Virus genome (UHGV): UHGV-1366629
Reading direction: 5' to 3' (one strand)
Length of the DNA: 40,625 nt
Origin: a virus
Shown: one piece after another, positions 2,904-20,119 of the stretch
Layout: every line of letters begins with the position of its first letter
Position numbering within the stretch: the first letter of the stretch is position 1
The notes under the pieces: model-generated
What the model saw: only the letters and a program-made list of their open reading frames with translations
Databases searched by the model: none
What the model was told of the DNA's origin: nothing
Position numbers and translations under genes: made by a program

Positions 2904-4643
2904 TTACATTGTTATACCTGTGAAGTCATTTGTTAGCTGACTATCTTGAGTTTCTACCGTACCAATCAAATAAGCTAGGAAACTTGAGAACGGGTCTGTT
3001 TTACGCCGGATAGGTTCAATCTTGTTATAACGAACCCCACGAGGTAAAATCTCTTTGAATACGTTACCACATGCCCACCTGAATAAAACTGAATTACCTA
3101 CGAATAGCTCGCCTTGTGAAAACATTCTGTCTACCATCGGGCTGACCATCGTTTCATATTTCATATTCGTAGGGTTTCGGTGAACAATATACCCTGAGTC
3201 CTCTAAAGCTTTACCTAAGACTGCTGACTTGTATTGGTCAATGTATACCTCGTTTAGTACCCAACCTTGCTCACGCATTGAATTAAACCAATTTACTACG
3301 TATTGCTCGCTGATAATCTTGTTAGGTACAACGGTCAACTCACCAATTACCTCCGCCTCTTGTAATAACTGTTCATTGATTACACCTAGATGTCGCTGTT
3401 CGTGTGTTATAAATGAATGTTGTAATGTATAAAATTCATTGTTAAAACGACCAACTATACCAACCGTTGTCAAGTCTTTACTTGTTGAAAAGTCAACTGT
3501 CCCACTTACTAACACCATACCTAATTGGTCACGATAATAGAAAATGTCACGCTTAGCCGTGTTTCTAATTTCCTCATTTGAGGCCACTTTAAAGCGGGTA
3601 TCCTCTTTCACGTAATTAAGTCGTTTTAAATGGAACTCGATGTTTAGTTCTGGGTTTACATCAATTTCCGCGACTTCCTCACGGTAGGTTTGCATTAAGT
3701 TGGGGTTATACAAAATAGTTGGGTTCGCTTTTTGCCAACCTATCTCAGTTCTATTTTCTTCCTCGCTATCTACGTGGTGCATAAATGGAAATAGTCGGCT
3801 ATGTCTTGGGTCATTAGTTGGGAAATGAACACCCCGCTCTTGAGATAGAACAGCATTACATTTCTCTTTGTAGTCATCTAATACTTTACCTCTAACATAT
3901 CCATCGGTTGAAGTGATAAATAATCTCTTGTCGGGTATCTTACCTAAACTAGACCGCATAACTTGTAAGCTAGCATAGTCGCCAATTGCGTGAATTTCAT
4001 CAAGATAAGCCGCCCCTAAACGTTGACCGTCCATTGTGTTACCGTTAGATGAAAGATACCTAAAGTCTGAATTGGTGCTACCACTTTTCATTTCTTGAAG
4101 TGTTCTAGTTGGAAACGCTTTCAATAATTTAGGGTTAGATTCAATTACTTCTTTAATATCCATGTAAGAAGTTTTGGCTTGTCGTTCTGAAGCGCTTGAA
4201 ATGGCAATGTTATACTTTCTAATGCCGTTTACCTTAGTCAATAGAGCAAAGATAACCCAACTCATAAAATAGTTCTTACCCGAACCACGTGCCATATAAA
4301 GCATATACTCATTAAATACTAACGTATCATCAGACTTAAACCTTAACCCAAAGATAACGGGCAATAGAAATTTTTCCCAAGGATATAAGTCATGAGGAAA
4401 GTATTTTTTCGGGGTATTATACGCATTCTCAGAGGCCGTTACATCTAAGTAAATATCTAAATGAAACACTACCTCGAATAGATAAACAAATAATAACTCA
4501 ATACTTTTTGAAACGTGTTGTTTACCTGAGTCTATTTCTTGTTTATATTCCTGAAACATGTGAAAGTTACTTATATCCTCAAAAGTGTCTATACATGTGT
4601 GGCTTTTTGGTAGCCAAGGAATATGATGTTCAAATTTACTCAT
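2904..4643 (-). CDS. terL: terminase large subunit
   Basis: 579 aa; Walker A-like YMARGSGKNYF; follows small terminase and HNH; typical size. Confidence 0.9.
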   Translation of the reverse strand: MSKFEHHIPWLPKSHTCIDTFEDISNFHMFQEYKQEIDSGKQHVSKSIELLFVYLFEVVFHLDIYLDVTASENAYNTPKKYFPHDLYPWEKFLLPVIFGLRFKSDDTLVFNEYMLYMARGSGKNYFMSWVIFALLTKVNGIRKYNIAISSASERQAKTSYMDIKEVIESNPKLLKAFPTRTLQEMKSGSTNSDFRYLSSNGNTMDGQRLGAAYLDEIHAIGDYASLQVMRSSLGKIPDKRLFITSTDGYVRGKVLDDYKEKCNAVLSQERGVHFPTNDPRHSRLFPFMHHVDSEEENRTEIGWQKANPTILYNPNLMQTYREEVAEIDVNPELNIEFHLKRLNYVKEDTRFKVASNEEIRNTAKRDIFYYRDQLGMVLVSGTVDFSTSKDLTTVGIVGRFNNEFYTLQHSFITHEQRHLGVINEQLLQEAEVIGELTVVPNKIISEQYVVNWFNSMREQGWVLNEVYIDQYKSAVLGKALEDSGYIVHRNPTNMKYETMVSPMVDRMFSQGELFVGNSVLFRWACGNVFKEILPRGVRYNKIEPIRRKTDPFSSFLAYLIGTVETQDSQLTNDFTGITM

Positions 4644-4957
4644 TTCACCATTGGAATATAGGTTTCAGCGATGTATAACACCGTTTCTACCTTTTCTGGT
4701 GATAAATTGAGGATATTTTGTAAATCTTGGTCAAAATTACCAGTTTTTAGAGCATTTTTTACTTGTTCTAAACTCATTTTAGCGCAACGATTGCCCCCTA
4801 CTGCTGTCCGTATATTAACGTATCTTGTATATACATCTTGCAATAAACTATTTCTTGTCATTTTGTGGGCGCTCTCGTCCTCTAATAAATGGCGAACTCT
4901 ATACTCAGTATTGTTAAGTGTCATTACTTCAGGTAGTTTAAATGTCATCGTCATCAC
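4640..4957 (-). CDS. hypothetical protein between terS and terL (true start probably internal, ~4950 or ~4918)
   Basis: 105 aa ORF, ATGA overlap with terL start; no recognisable motif. Confidence 0.4.
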   Translation of the reverse strand: MMTMTFKLPEVMTLNNTEYRVRHLLEDESAHKMTRNSLLQDVYTRYVNIRTAVGGNRCAKMSLEQVKNALKTGNFDQDLQNILNLSPEKVETVLYIAETYIPMVK

Positions 4958-18383: not shown

Positions 18384-18641
18384 ATGGAATTAATTGTAAA
18401 TCAAAAGCATTACACGAATAAAGGTATTCATGAACCTATTAAAGTTATGATGGATACATTCACAGGCGAGGAGTATCGCGGTTATTTAAACGGTAACGTA
18501 TTAAAATATATGTTAAGATATAAAGATAAAAACGGACTTGAGGACTTGAAAAAAGCTCAAACTTACCTAACATGGTTAATTGAAGCATATGAAGAACTTG
18601 AAAAAGAACCGATGGCAGCACCTACTGATTTTGACTTTTAA
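18384..18641 (+). CDS. hypothetical protein
   Basis: 85 aa. Confidence 0.6.
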   Translation: MELIVNQKHYTNKGIHEPIKVMMDTFTGEEYRGYLNGNVLKYMLRYKDKNGLEDLKKAQTYLTWLIEAYEELEKEPMAAPTDFDF

Positions 18642-18660
18642 TAGTTAAGTATGGTATAAT
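18631..18660 (+). promoter_or_regulatory. promoter TTGACT-18-TGGTATAAT driving the ORF-free region
   Basis: ttgacttttaatagttaagtatggtataat. Confidence 0.55.
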
Positions 18661-19080
18661 ATAAGTATAAGAACCCATGACACCTATTAACAATGTGCAA
18701 ATCGTGGGGCAAAAATATTAGCGGGCTTGGGTTGTAGCTTGCTCCCGCCTAGGGGCTTAAATAAGTAAAAAGAATACTAGGAGTAGCAACTACTATGCTG
18801 AACAGTAGCGCAACCAATAAACTATAGCTTGAACTATAGTATAAAGAAGAGCTACATTGTGGCTTGTCGTTAGTGTGAGAGCGACGAAGAAAACAAAACT
18901 CACATAATATAATAGATTAAGACTTAGAAAAGTTTATTGTCCCCATTGGACAAACTCAGGTTCTAAGTCTATTTATTTGTTTATAAAATAACATATGTTA
19001 TTAAAAGGCATTAAAAAAGCCCCTGACTAGAGGGGCAACAGAAAGAAGAAAGGAAGAAAGAAGAAAGGAAAGAAGTATCA
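18661..19080 (+). ncRNA. candidate non-coding RNA / replication-origin region: no ORF above 15 codons on either strand, multiple hairpins
   Basis: hairpins 18721-18748, 18790-18808, 18821-18840, nested 18920-18970; 16-bp palindrome 18987-19002; purine tract 19040-19075. Confidence 0.35.
19013..19036 (-). terminator. intrinsic terminator on minus strand (GCCCCT-gactag-AGGGGC followed by T6 on minus)
   Basis: plus aaaaaaGCCCCTgactagAGGGGC. Confidence 0.45.
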
Positions 19081-19192
19081 CAAAATGGAGGAAGTAGTTA
19101 ATTAACGCTAATGAAAGCGCTTACTTAACTATAATATTATTGTACCATATTCAGACCCCAAAAGTCAAATTCAAAAAAGTTTATAAAAAGTG

Positions 19193-19221
19193 TTGACAAG
19201 TTGGTTATTTCATGATATACT
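19193..19221 (+). promoter_or_regulatory. sigma-A promoter TTGACA-17-TATACT with leader TTAATTCATAAGTTAAGAGGAGG
   Basis: ttgacaagttggttatttcatgatatact. Confidence 0.65.
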
Positions 19222-19252
19222 TAATTCATAAGTTAAGAGGAGGAAACAAATT

Positions 19253-19459
19253 ATGAAACCATATTACGTAGAATTAGAAAACACAATTGAGGAATTAGAA
19301 GAATTATTCATTACAAGATACATGGAACTAATGGAATGTGACAGAGAATGGGCTATGGAAGTTCAAAAAACGGAATGTAACGCACCACATACTAAAGAAG
19401 ATGTGGAATTAATTCTAAAACAACTATGTTCATTATGTGGGGTTGATTACACATGCTAA
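19253..19459 (+). CDS. hypothetical small acidic protein
   Basis: 68 aa. Confidence 0.55.
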   Translation: MKPYYVELENTIEELEELFITRYMELMECDREWAMEVQKTECNAPHTKEDVELILKQLCSLCGVDYTC

Positions 19460-19773
19460 GTCAAAAAGAAATACTACTGGATAACCACTATCCAGTAGTA
19501 TTAAAATATTTAGTGTCTGAACTAAAGAAAGCAGACAAGAAACGAGATAATGCAACTAAGAAACTAATGGATATGAACGAAAGAGAAAACATGCAATCGC
19601 ATACAACTCAAAGGTACTGGAAAACAGTAGCTAATGTTGAATTTTATGAAAAGGAAGTTCGTAAACTGGTTTCAGAAATTAAAACAATTATTGATATTTA
19701 TGACATTAAAAATAAAATGCACCAAGAAAGATTTTATTTTATAAAAAGTATTGACAAACTTCTAAAACCTTGA
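19453..19773 (+). CDS. hypothetical protein
   Basis: 106 aa. Confidence 0.55.
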   Translation: MLSQKEILLDNHYPVVLKYLVSELKKADKKRDNATKKLMDMNERENMQSHTTQRYWKTVANVEFYEKEVRKLVSEIKTIIDIYDIKNKMHQERFYFIKSIDKLLKP

Positions 19774-19779
19774 TATAGT
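19751..19779 (+). promoter_or_regulatory. sigma-A promoter TTGACA-17-TATAGT with leader TAATTCATAAGATAAAGGGAGG
   Basis: ttgacaaacttctaaaaccttgatatagt. Confidence 0.65.
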
Positions 19780-19809
19780 TAATTCATAAGATAAAGGGAG
19801 GTTTTAAAA

Positions 19810-19884
19810 ATGGCAGTATTCACATTAGTATTTATGGTTGTGGCTTTCGGTATCTTGTTCGGAACGATGAAATATTTTGACTAA
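19810..19884 (+). CDS. tiny hydrophobic peptide (24 aa), not in the ORF track
   Basis: strong RBS aagggagg then ATG 19810; MAVFTLVFMVVAFGILFGTMKYFD. Confidence 0.5.
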   Translation: MAVFTLVFMVVAFGILFGTMKYFD

Positions 19885-19890
19885 AAAGGG

Positions 19891-19919
19891 TTTACAAATA
19901 TAAAAAACTATGGTATAAT
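19891..19919 (+). promoter_or_regulatory. promoter TTTACA-17-TGGTATAAT
   Basis: tttacaaatataaaaaactatggtataat. Confidence 0.6.
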
Positions 19920-19951
19920 AAAAACTATAAAAATAGAAAGAGGTTTTAATT

Positions 19952-20119
19952 ATGAGATTTGCAAAATTTAGTTTGAGTTTAGTGATTGGTTTGATTATTC
20001 TAGTGTCGTTTATGATTGCAATGTTGAAAGTGTTTGCTGTTCCAATTATTGTAATATTGATTGCAGTTGGTGCTTTCGTACTAGTTCAAAAAGGGAATGA
20101 TGACAATGGAAAAGAGTAA
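19952..20119 (+). CDS. small membrane protein (55 aa, 2 predicted TM), not in the ORF track
   Basis: RBS agaaagagg; MRFAKFSLSLVIGLIILVSFMIAMLKVFAVPIIVILIAVGAFVLVQKGNDDNGKE. Confidence 0.5.
   Translation: MRFAKFSLSLVIGLIILVSFMIAMLKVFAVPIIVILIAVGAFVLVQKGNDDNGKE

Follow-up and report, generated by a model that had tools for sequence, protein, structure and literature searches.

What does a phage keep between positions 18642 and 19252 of its genome, in a non-coding and highly structured stretch that lies directly behind a near-consensus promoter? The initial annotation of the window (the whole stretch of DNA analysed, 40,625 nucleotides of UHGV virus genome UHGV-1366629) had offered two answers, a structured regulatory or decoy ncRNA and a transcription-activated origin of replication. 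Judged from its sequence, the region is made of two convergent transcription units rather than a single element (Table 1). Two of their parts had gone unnoticed, the 5' hairpin at 18674-18709 and the minus-strand promoter at 19168-19139, and the features between 18987 and 19200, which had been counted with the plus-strand RNA, belong in part to a candidate unit for a minus-strand sRNA and in part to the promoter that serves the downstream operon.

Table 1. Features of the non-coding locus, in window coordinates
Feature	Positions	Strand	Description
Sigma-70 promoter of the plus-strand ncRNA	18631-18660	+	-35 TTGACT, 18-nt spacer, TG-extended -10 TATAAT; kept in A40
abiF-motif (AbiFr-like) hairpin	18674-18709	+	CCCAU-GA-CAC-CUAUUAACAAU-GUG-CAAAUC-GUGGG
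Conserved core, ~100 nt	18715-18816	+	Contains stem P2 (18720-18727 with 18736-18743) and hairpin P3 (18790-18808)
Variable 3' domain	18817-18919	+	Hairpin 18821-18840, stems around 18849-18906
Compound terminator hairpin	18920-18982	+	Outer stem AGACUUAGAA/UUCUAAGUCU, inner stem UUGUCC/GGACAA, U-rich tail AUUUAUUUGUUU
Perfect 16-bp palindrome	18987-19002	.	AATAACATATGTTATT; between the convergent terminators
Candidate minus-strand sRNA, ~120 nt	19011-19132	-	5' hairpin, unstructured ~58-nt CU-rich tract containing CUUCCUCC, terminator 19036-19019 with U-run
Promoter of the minus-strand sRNA	19139-19168	-	TTGACT-18-TG-n-TACAAT; 10/12 consensus positions, TG present
Promoter of the downstream operon (68-aa ORF, DUF1140, Prim-Pol)	19193-19221	+	TTGACA-17-TATACT, 11/12

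We found no convincing ORF in 18642-19252, in agreement with the initial annotation, although its statement that none exceeds about 15 codons was inexact: the minus strand holds ORFs of 20-36 codons, with GTG or TTG starts and none with a Shine-Dalgarno sequence, and the 36-codon ORF is interrupted by a 185-bp indel in the closest relative, phage A40. A 26-aa hydrophobic minus-strand ORF (19001-19081) was rejected as a gene; it begins with GTG, lacks a Shine-Dalgarno sequence and owes its composition to the CU repeat that it translates. ARAGORN reported neither tRNA nor tmRNA, and no Rfam family matched anywhere in the window at gathering thresholds; the sub-threshold matches to Srn266, fstAT and a CRISPR direct repeat were set aside as noise (low scores, no support from homologues).

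The promoter proposed at 18631-18660 was confirmed, with 11 of 12 consensus positions and an extended -10 element, and transcription from it is predicted to start at ~18667. The predicted product is a plus-strand ncRNA of about 310 nt (~18667-18980), which would end at the compound terminator hairpin and whose entire fold has z = -3.0. The reading as a structured regulatory or decoy ncRNA was supported and could be made specific, at a length of ~310 nt and not the 350-400 nt first given. The two short hairpins described at 18790-18808 and 18821-18840 are both present, as is the nested stem-loop at 18920-18970 (-19.4 kcal/mol, z = -3.65). A GC-rich hairpin had been placed at 18721-18748; it exists, but the better pairing is AGCGGGCU/AGCUUGCU (stem P2), which we preferred because substitutions in relatives preserve those pairs: P2 is 99% paired, with changes from C-G to U-A and from G.U to A-U or G-C. 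With RNAalifold, an alternative long-range fold of the core competes with P2, and the alignment is too invariant to choose between them. The core itself is 90-96% identical in ~38 Enterococcus phage records, with a mean column identity of 94% across 13 distinct sequences; a mini-ORF of 10-12 codons, with AGGAG ahead, also lies within it. Downstream of the core, at ~18820-18845, the window sequence is replaced by another domain, of ~185 nt, in A40 and the Efquatrovirus phages. Moreover, the terminator hairpin module closes every homologous locus with a conserved outer stem sequence, UUUUU following it in relatives, and its pairs covary (GGU/ACC versus GAA/UUC, UUAUCC/GGAUAA versus UUGUCC/GGACAA). 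Both 18920-18970 with AUUUAUUUGUUU and 19036-19019 with U6, the minus-strand terminator that had been reported, combine a stable GC-containing hairpin with a U-tract as intrinsic terminators do; a simple terminator scan missed the former because of its long loop.

The element that gives the locus its most specific meaning is the hairpin that begins ~8 nt past the predicted transcription start. By sequence and structure, this 5' hairpin of the plus-strand RNA is a homologue of the abiF-motif RNA (RF03085; AbiFr/RCd22, the antitoxin of the HEPN toxin AbiF). RF03085 aligned with it end to end (E = 0.071) and was the top match at the equivalent 5' position in four phages (24.7 bits in the window, 32.6 in A40, 31.1 in phiSHEF4 and 29 in Vaquero), scores that fall below the Rfam gathering threshold of 37 bits for the window hairpin and its phage homologues; a genuine AbiF-linked hairpin, L140, which has the same CAC/GUG inner stem and a 292-aa Abi_2 ORF 15 nt downstream, reached only 31.7 bits. 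Our own model, R1, gave 43.2 bits at 18671-18714 and found no second abiF hairpin in the phage RNA (one copy per locus). The MFE fold agrees with the RF03085 architecture of a 5-6 bp outer stem (here 5 bp), a 1-nt 5' bulge, a 3-bp inner stem, an 11-nt loop and a 3' internal loop of ~6 nt. The conserved loop CUCUYAAYRAU appears in the window as CUAUUAACAAU, with one C-to-A change, and the 3' bulge CAAAUC is identical; the loop of A40 is CUCUUAACAAU, and the A-variant loop of the window, together with CAAAUC, also occurs in the complete hairpin of L190/L191. AbiFr of Prevotellaceae AbiF and RCd22 of C. difficile AbiF have the same architecture, with an outer stem, a bulge of 1-2 nt, a 3-bp inner stem, the 11-nt loop CU(C/A)UUAACAAU and the 3' bulge CAAAUC. 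RCd22 likewise starts ~8-9 nt after a sigma-70 transcription start (PMC12373285), but consists of two motifs where the phage RNA has one. When 19 phage and host hairpins were aligned jointly, 95.8% of the cells were paired, 8 of the 9 pairs had changed on both sides, and the covariation score was 0.856 as against 0.237 in shuffles and at most 0.225 in slid controls. Covariation analysis against related phages, which the initial annotation had put forward as a check, therefore turned out positive: hairpin 18674-18709 covaries with AbiF-linked hairpins.

Host AbiF leaders were reached only via the AbiF protein and not via nucleotide search; neither the hairpin nor the full A40 RNA, compared by blastn with 72,556 plasmids, had a relevant counterpart there, and the remainder of the RNA is without a plasmid match. 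Canonical motifs taken from genomes have the form stem-AAGC-CUCUUAACAAU-GCU-CAAAUC-stem, followed by an ORF of ~300 aa with the signature RNxCAHHSRLWN, and the phage hairpins have the 11-nt loop and the CAAAUC bulge in common with them. Upstream of PF07751 genes in two E. hirae plasmid loci and in an E. faecalis AbiF+AbiH island, we found the order promoter-AAGCGAGU-stem-G-CGC-loop-GCG-UACCA-stem-GCCUAU7, and the loop of a Vagococcus AbiF leader is CUCUUAACAAU, identical to the phage loop. Indeed, one class of phage hairpins, type B (phiSHEF4, IME196, E. hirae phages 268, dArtagnan), equals the host leaders at all non-stem positions and in the distance from the -10 element, and host and phage hairpins have an identical dot-bracket fold. 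Type-B hairpins and the Enterococcaceae Abi_2 leaders (E. hirae pCQP3-9_1 WP_002293769.1, the E. faecalis AbiF+AbiH island, Vagococcus hydrophili AbiF) share AAGCGAGU, G-CGC, GCG-(A/U)A(A/C)CA and GCC(A/U)AU, and with the Vagococcus leader the entire loop, whereas their outer stems are different and show compensatory changes. The hairpin of the window is of a sister type, A (AAGAAC...CAC/GUG...CAAAUC...GCAAAA). We found no host AbiF leader of type A in Enterococcus, the direct host match being to type B of the related phages; AbiF-linked examples of type A were found only outside enterococci (L140, L182). The Enterococcus AbiF clade is uncommon, in clusters of 13-53 member sequences.

This missing host leader of the exact subtype is one point in favor of a structured phage ncRNA unrelated to AbiF, a regulatory or sponge RNA that would act through its invariant 100-nt core, the hairpin being a captured stabilising 5' stem-loop or a neutral recombination relic of a host abiF locus. 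5' hairpins commonly protect Gram-positive RNAs from 5' decay. The core, moreover, occurs in loci both with and without the abiF-like hairpin, which about half of the homologous loci lack, and must therefore have another role. However, the hairpin stems have diverged completely from one phage to another (CCCAU, CUCAU, ACUACC, ACUAGC, AUGGGG) while loop (11 nt), inner stem (3 bp) and 3' bulge are fixed and equal to those of host AbiFr, a pattern to be expected if a protein recognises the element, but not if it were a generic stabiliser or a relic in decay. In phiSHEF4, SSMH02 and dArtagnan, the hairpin has a promoter to itself, and orphan abiF hairpins recur among viral and metagenomic phage contigs that are unrelated, one of which has the window loop CUAUUAACAAU. 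We therefore consider an RNA without relation to AbiF unlikely. A pattern search with GCGAGT-N6-GCGCCT... returned 9 IMG/VR matches, which were discarded as chance, none of them fitting the model.

Unlike the RF03085 members, the phage hairpin is followed by no abiF, and none exists elsewhere in the phage. An HMM built from 54 AbiF proteins found no AbiF in the window or in 21 phage loci, while host controls were detected down to E 1e-72; the best Abi_2 score in the window was 9.4 bits, on a DUF3310 protein. RF03085 RNAs stand directly upstream of abiF (Abi_2, PF07751); here the genes downstream are the 68-aa ORF and DUF1140. With no Abi_2 gene downstream or elsewhere, the hairpin is an orphan copy and not part of a toxin-antitoxin locus, so that a homologue of a host antitoxin RNA is present in a lytic phage without the cognate toxin, as is expected of a decoy. 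The phage copy also differs in lying inside a much longer RNA.

In the host, AbiFr (RCd22 in C. difficile) lies between the promoter of abiF (Abi_2/HEPN) and its start codon, and holds the AbiF RNase dimer in an inactive state by binding to it. The abiF-motif RNA neutralises AbiF by direct binding, in cis and in trans (PMC12373285), and both the binding and the suppression of RNase toxicity were shown for RCd22 and PbAbiFr (PMC12373285, PMC12737573). The host hairpin and a U-run stand 20-40 nt before abiF, and deletion raises abiF mRNA 17-fold (PMC12373285). By analogy with this native leader, whose promoter, hairpin and U-tract attenuate the transcription of abiF, the window RNA, which is co-oriented with the downstream genes, might be a cis-acting leader or attenuator that governs read-through into the downstream early/replication operon. 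However, the window hairpin is followed not by a U-run but by ~260 nt more of structured RNA, a strong terminator, the convergent unit and a separate operon promoter; this promoter is outside the ncRNA, and homology with the early regions of Efquatrovirus begins at it. In Efquatrovirus, the RNA locus precedes terL, which has a TG-extended -10 element of its own. A leader or attenuator function is thus most improbable.

The distribution of the locus points to a mobile and modular RNA. It is present in at least 102 Enterococcus phage records, mostly between terS and terL and with swapped 5' modules, and was unannotated in all genome records examined; a literature search for Enterococcus phage ncRNAs or transcript maps of the locus, outside of which Zilberzwige-Tal et al. 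(2025) lies, found none. In the window and in A40, the RNA locus is in the early region instead, and the terS-terL gap of the window is taken by a 105-aa ORF.

The second unit runs in the opposite direction. Its promoter is a 44-nt inverted near-copy of the plus-strand promoter, and in A40 its -10 element is a perfect TATAAT. The convergent unit, 19168 to 19011, would probably produce a CU-rich sRNA of ~120 nt. The candidate folds at -23.7 kcal/mol (z = -5.06) with the CU tract unpaired, and is kept in A40, one 15-nt unit shorter; no homologue was found in IMG/VR. Its CU-rich tract is the reverse complement of the 36-nt purine run at 19040-19075, which has no second of its kind in the window (200 shuffles gave runs of 24 nt at most). 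The tandem 15-mer described in this run is present in 2.1 copies in the window but is single-copy in A40. The perfect palindrome at 18987-19002 likewise exists as described but is at chance level, since a shuffled genome is expected to hold 1.33 of them and at least one turns up in 73% of the shuffles. A40 has it in imperfect form; it is probably not functional in itself, and was ruled out as an operator or ori element.

These are the features on which the initial annotation had built an origin of replication, in which a transcript started at the promoter and running across structured DNA would prime replication or activate it, the 15-mers serving as iterons and the polypurine tract as the element that unwinds or forms a triplex. 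Lactococcal phage c2 is known to have an ori of this sort, non-coding and dependent on a transcript. The region here is non-coding too, lies ~900 bp upstream of the Prim-Pol/PriCT gene, contains the unique purine run and has a GC content at the low end (0.29 in 19001-20000, as against 0.29-0.40 across the window). However, iterons, DnaA boxes, skew and locus position all failed to support the proposal. The 15-mer falls short of the three copies at least that iterons require and is accompanied by no other direct-repeat family; there is no DnaA box within 18.4-19.5 kb; and the cumulative GC skew, a weak test in a 40-kb phage, rises smoothly in the direction of transcription with no local inflection. 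The palindrome, as said, adds nothing beyond chance. Further, more than 100 phages have the homologous locus between terS and terL, with no linkage to replication genes, which argues against an origin, as do the G.U pairs, which are retained only in the plus-strand sense (abiF-like hairpin, P2) and whose covariation indicates selection on the RNA and not on the DNA. An origin at this locus is therefore very unlikely; one confined to the part specific to the window and A40 (18980-19190) may be considered.

Given the homology in sequence and structure, the covariation, the orphan status and the conservation and mobility of the locus that we observed, we consider it probable that the region encodes an autonomous, moron-like counter-defence RNA carrying an orphan AbiF antitoxin decoy, and is not a replication origin. 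As the hairpin copies the enterococcal AbiF antitoxin RNA, the phage most likely uses it to disarm AbiF defence. In the mechanism that we propose, the strong sigma-70 promoter would drive the ~310-nt structured RNA up to its terminator at 18920-18982, and the first element of this RNA, ~8 nt from the 5' end, would be the abiF-motif hairpin, an antitoxin RNA without a toxin. An infecting phage would flood the cell with this hairpin, host AbiF would stay antitoxin-bound even if host transcription or RNA stability collapses, and abortive infection would thereby be blocked. The hairpin may be seen as an exchangeable cassette grafted onto a conserved phage ncRNA, which contributes the 100-nt core and the terminator hairpin.

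The logic would be that of pseudo-ToxI against ToxIN. Pseudo-ToxI of Pectobacterium phage PhiTE reportedly counters ToxIN, a function said to have been shown experimentally by Blower and colleagues in 2012. There too, a phage carries the RNA antitoxin of a type III system but no toxin, and with it neutralises an abortive-infection RNase. The target there, however, has the ToxN fold and here would be the HEPN protein AbiF, and ToxI is a processed tandem repeat while the RNA of the window phage has a single hairpin, of putative function. A second parallel is a hairpin from the cos region of lactococcal phage sk1, which inhibits AbiF according to PMC13064643 (citing Rince 2000 and Zilberzwige-Tal 2025). 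The sk1 element is also a non-coding, AbiF-inhibiting phage hairpin near packaging genes, comparable in place to the Efquatrovirus locus between terS and terL, although the window locus is away from the terminase genes; the sk1 hairpin is reported there to be unlike the AbiF ncRNA, whereas the enterococcal phage hairpin is a clear homologue. RNA anti-CRISPRs (Racr) are solitary repeat units carried by phages (PMC12737573), and so are likewise orphan phage copies of a structured RNA that is normally loaded by an RNA-binding immune effector; the Cas13 crRNA repeat is proposed to derive from AbiFr, and AbiF-AbiFr is a type III-like toxin-antitoxin pair and proposed Cas13 ancestor. Racr, however, target a CRISPR effector, which is mis-assembled, while the phage hairpin would target a toxin-antitoxin-type Abi system, which is proposed to stay inhibited.

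More tentatively, the whole RNA locus of 300-600 nt in Enterococcus siphophages could be an anti-defence RNA island, a series of hairpin cassettes that can be exchanged and of which some have a promoter to themselves. Each cassette would mimic the small RNA partner of a different host RNA-binding immune effector, the AbiFr copy being the first recognisable one; we hold this to be a rather doubtful extension. If it were true, the scattered orphan AbiFr hairpins would mark a general RNA-based counter-defence against HEPN nucleases of the AbiF/Cas13 lineage, which to our knowledge has not been described as such.

HEPN toxins of the AbiF/AbiD type with RNA antitoxins are widespread abortive-infection systems and proposed Cas13 ancestors, from which phage escape is barely known; the single reported case is the sk1 hairpin, said to be unlike the antitoxin. 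What is new here is that the window phage and the large Efquatrovirus group have, with no toxin beside it, an RNA obviously homologous to the antitoxin, behind a consensus promoter and inside a conserved RNA gene. Protein-centred annotation pipelines overlook counter-defence determinants of this kind. Efquatrovirus phages figure in phage-therapy work directed at E. faecalis and E. faecium, and it can now be tested whether phages routinely counter AbiF by RNA mimicry, whether such mimicry accounts for some of the host-range differences among therapeutic enterococcal phages, and what role the conserved, structured RNA core plays.

The window belongs to an Enterococcus siphophage (~40.6 kb) for which the nearest database entry is E. 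cecorum phage A40 (PV173149), and its gene-free interval has the DUF3310 gene (18384-18641) on one side and, from 19253, an ORF of 68 aa on the other. The initial annotation had called this interval ORF-free, which holds for credible coding sequence but not literally, as ORFs of 20-36 codons with GTG or TTG starts occur, all on the minus strand, the longest of them broken in A40. All of the elements that it listed were found: the promoter at 18631-18660 agrees with the consensus at 11 of 12 positions and its -10 is extended, folding agrees with the hairpins as described, and the interval also contains the 16-bp palindrome, the terminator on the minus strand and a 36-nt purine run that includes 2.1 copies of a 15-mer. 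The purine run is exceptional (maximum 24 nt among 200 shuffles) and the palindrome is not (1.33 expected per shuffled genome). Where the DUF1140 gene begins, a 15-bp perfect inverted repeat (AATACTACTGGATA...TATCCAGTAGTATT, 19470-19502) was scored by the scan as a minus-strand terminator-like site.

The interval had been treated as a single element; we predict two convergent transcription units instead. The nested hairpin at 18920-18970 (-19.4 kcal/mol, z = -3.65) is followed by AUUUAUUUGUUU, and the homologous hairpin in relatives has UUUUU directly 3'; therefore, it was taken as the 3' end of a plus-strand RNA. This predicted RNA of ~310 nt, starting near 18667 (fold z = -3.0), is very probably a real transcript. 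The minus-strand promoter, an inverted near-copy of the plus-strand one, faces the terminator at 19036-19019, and the predicted RNA of ~120 nt comprises a hairpin at its 5' end, a CU-rich tract of ~58 nt that is unpaired and complementary to the purine run, and the terminator (fold z = -5.06). This CU-rich sRNA is a plausible candidate for a second gene. A 26-codon GTG-initiated ORF (MILLSFLLSSFLLSVAPLVRGFFNAF, 19001-19081, minus strand) overlaps the CU-rich tract, with a weak fstAT Rfam match (17 bits) nearby. The hydrophobicity of this ORF is that of a translated repeat, a Shine-Dalgarno sequence is lacking, and we rejected it as a type I toxin.

In a permissive Rfam scan, the best match was the abiF motif (RF03085) at 18674-18709 (24.7 bits, E = 0.071), which was also the top match at the equivalent position of the related phages A40 (32.6 bits), phiSHEF4 (31.1 bits) and Vaquero (29 bits). 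None of these four hairpins reaches the Rfam gathering score of 37 bits, and neither does L140 (31.7 bits), an authentic hairpin that shares their CAC/GUG subtype and downstream of which a 292-aa Abi_2 protein begins after 15 nt. When species-representative genomes were scanned with the canonical loop pattern, at least 120 loci were recovered, typically stem-AAGC-CUCUUAACAAU-GCU-CAAAUC-stem with a ~300-aa ORF containing RNxCAHHSRLWN at most 20-40 nt downstream; the window hairpin reads CCCAU-GA-CAC-CUAUUAACAAU-GUG-CAAAUC-GUGGG. In an alignment of 19 hairpins taken from phages, from plasmids of enterococci and from canonical AbiF loci, pairing was kept in 95.8% of cells and 8 of the 9 pairs showed both-sided changes. 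The covariation score was 0.856; shuffles scored 0.237, and slid controls no more than 0.225. Moreover, a covariance model built from these phage and host hairpins detected a single copy in each positive phage locus and recovered non-seed hairpins (L009, 41.9 bits; E. faecium plasmid leader L142, E = 5e-4). Judged from sequence and covariation, the 5' hairpin of the plus-strand RNA is thus in all likelihood a homologue of AbiFr, the antitoxin RNA of AbiF.

A tblastn search with an AbiF protein query located Abi-family genes on 38 Enterococcus plasmids. A sigma-70 promoter precedes the Abi genes of E. hirae (L143, L145) and an AbiH-adjacent AbiF gene of E. faecalis (L146), all three encoding proteins with PF07751, and 3' of it lies the leader AAGCGAGU-CUUACC-G-CGC-CUAUCGAUGAA-GCG-UACCA-GGUAAG-GCCUAUUUUUUU; the leader of a Vagococcus hydrophili homologue is AAGCGAGU-CAGCC-A-CGC-CUCUUAACAAU-GCG-AAACA-GGGCUG-GCCUAU7. 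Phages phiSHEF4, SSMH02, IME196 and the E. hirae phages 268 and dArtagnan carry the sister subtype of the window hairpin (type B; the window has type A), (A/C)(A/G)GCGAGU-[6 bp]-G-CGC-CUCUUAACAAU-GCG-(A/U)A(C/U)CA-[6 bp]-GCCAAU. These type-B hairpins and the host leader hairpins have the same dot-bracket fold, the same spacing to the -10 element and identical non-stem positions throughout, and the type-B stems diverge with compensation (ACUACC/GGUAGU, ACUAGC/GCUAGU, AUGGGG/CCCCAU). In E. faecalis GCA_018980685.1 (L146, 1501-4104), an AbiH-family gene (PF14253) comes immediately after the AbiF gene with its leader hairpin, and the pair is a small defence island. Another AbiF homologue (L148) adjoins a D12 methyltransferase and a DndB-family gene. 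E. faecium plasmid pVEF4_A (L144, 95-195, minus strand) has a match to the type I antitoxin RNA RatA (47.3 bits, gathering score 49), beside an IS1216 element and an Abi gene that is truncated at its 5' end.

The 100 nt at 18715-18816 are 90-96% identical in ~38 Enterococcus phages, and the whole RNA locus is detectable in at least 102 phage records, nearly always in a terS-terL gap of 400-700 bp and annotated, where at all, as 'hypothetical protein'. These loci are mosaics with differing 5' modules: about half have an abiF hairpin, either type A or type B, and the remainder have two other kinds of hairpin module. A ~185-nt domain is optional (present in A40, absent from the window), some loci contain extra internal promoters, and each closes with a terminator hairpin whose outer stem is conserved. 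In the window and A40 the locus lies in the early region instead, and the window's terS-terL interval holds a 105-aa ORF (4640-4957, minus strand; no Pfam match) where Efquatrovirus has the ncRNA locus; its relocation, promoter and terminator included, is consistent with an autonomous accessory module. In the conserved core, stem P2 stays paired through its substitutions (C-G to U-A, G.U to A-U or G-C; 99% of cells paired), and the core outside P2 is nearly invariant, with competing long-range pairing in RNAalifold. Within it (18779-18820), 11 nt after an AGGAG, begins a mini-ORF reading MLNSSATNKL and a stop in the window and MLNSSATIGVKT and a stop in Efquatrovirus, its AUG within the loop of hairpin P3 and its variation too low to separate coding from RNA constraint. 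In some Efquatrovirus loci, those of Ef212 (L003, 1540-1670), ZAT1 (L011), EfaS_159 (L014) and LM99 (L021), a second mini transcription unit lies 3' of the main RNA. It consists of its own TG-extended -10, a ~35-nt leader and, after these, nothing but the conserved terminator-type hairpin GACUUAGG...CCUAAGUC, an arrangement suggesting that this hairpin can function as a separate module. In phage vB_EF_Enf3 (L018, PP747318, 490-1060), long poly-A/T and low-complexity stretches interrupt the terS-terL region and the abiF hairpin is degraded (15.5 bits), which points to an error of assembly or sequencing more than to biology.

The other proposal of the initial annotation, a replication origin, found no support: the region has no iteron family (the 15-mer has one copy fewer in A40) and no DnaA box, the skew profile runs smoothly through it, and in relatives the RNA locus shows no linkage to replication genes. 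An origin in the part specific to the window and A40 (18980-19190) is still conceivable.

The decoy-ncRNA proposal fared better and can be put more sharply. An HMM from 54 AbiF proteins, which detects host controls at E = 1e-58 to 1e-72, gave no match in the window and none in the 21 phage loci scanned. Previous studies reported that RCd22, an abiF-motif RNA whose first motif starts at +9, neutralises AbiF by direct binding in cis and in trans (PMC12373285), and that there is one AbiFr per AbiF monomer, its single-stranded bulge blocking the HEPN site (PMC12737573). Since these RNAs bind and block AbiF, an orphan hairpin that a phage expresses by itself under a strong promoter would presumably hold AbiF in its inactive state, and we consider an anti-AbiF decoy the rather likely role of the phage hairpin. 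A precedent is the cos-region hairpin of phage sk1, which inhibits AbiF and is described as unlike the AbiF ncRNA (PMC13064643), whereas the present hairpin is very probably a homologue of that ncRNA.

Predicted promoters of the window and orphan abiF-type hairpins of other contigs
Feature	Sequence	Position	Strand	Remarks
Minus-strand promoter	Window	19168-19139	-	TTGACT-18-TG-n-TACAAT; perfect TATAAT in A40
Third promoter	Window	19193-19221		Predicted to drive downstream operon
Orphan hairpin	L152	4029-4073
Orphan hairpin	L157	6657-6701
Orphan hairpin	L153	2059-2102
Orphan hairpin	L155	7359-7400	-
Orphan hairpin	L188	~3873-3892	-	Upstream of antirepressor and replication genes
Orphan hairpin	L191	515-534		Adjoins ATPase and 1425-aa ORF

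Full-length abiF-type hairpins without AbiF were also present in unrelated IMG/VR contigs (L152/L157 and L153/L155) and in phage-like metagenome contigs (L188, L191), with no Abi_2 gene within the contig stretches examined around them, and several have promoter-like sequence upstream or a U-run downstream. The L191 hairpin combines the CAAAUC bulge with the CUAUUAACAAU loop, a variant that L190 and L191 have in common with the window; the long ORF beside it was read as tail-fibre-like on sequence grounds only. In addition, cyanophage S-CREM1 and three phage genomes in Rfam have abiF matches, for which no role was proposed (PMC9964418). Orphan AbiFr copies may be common in phages.
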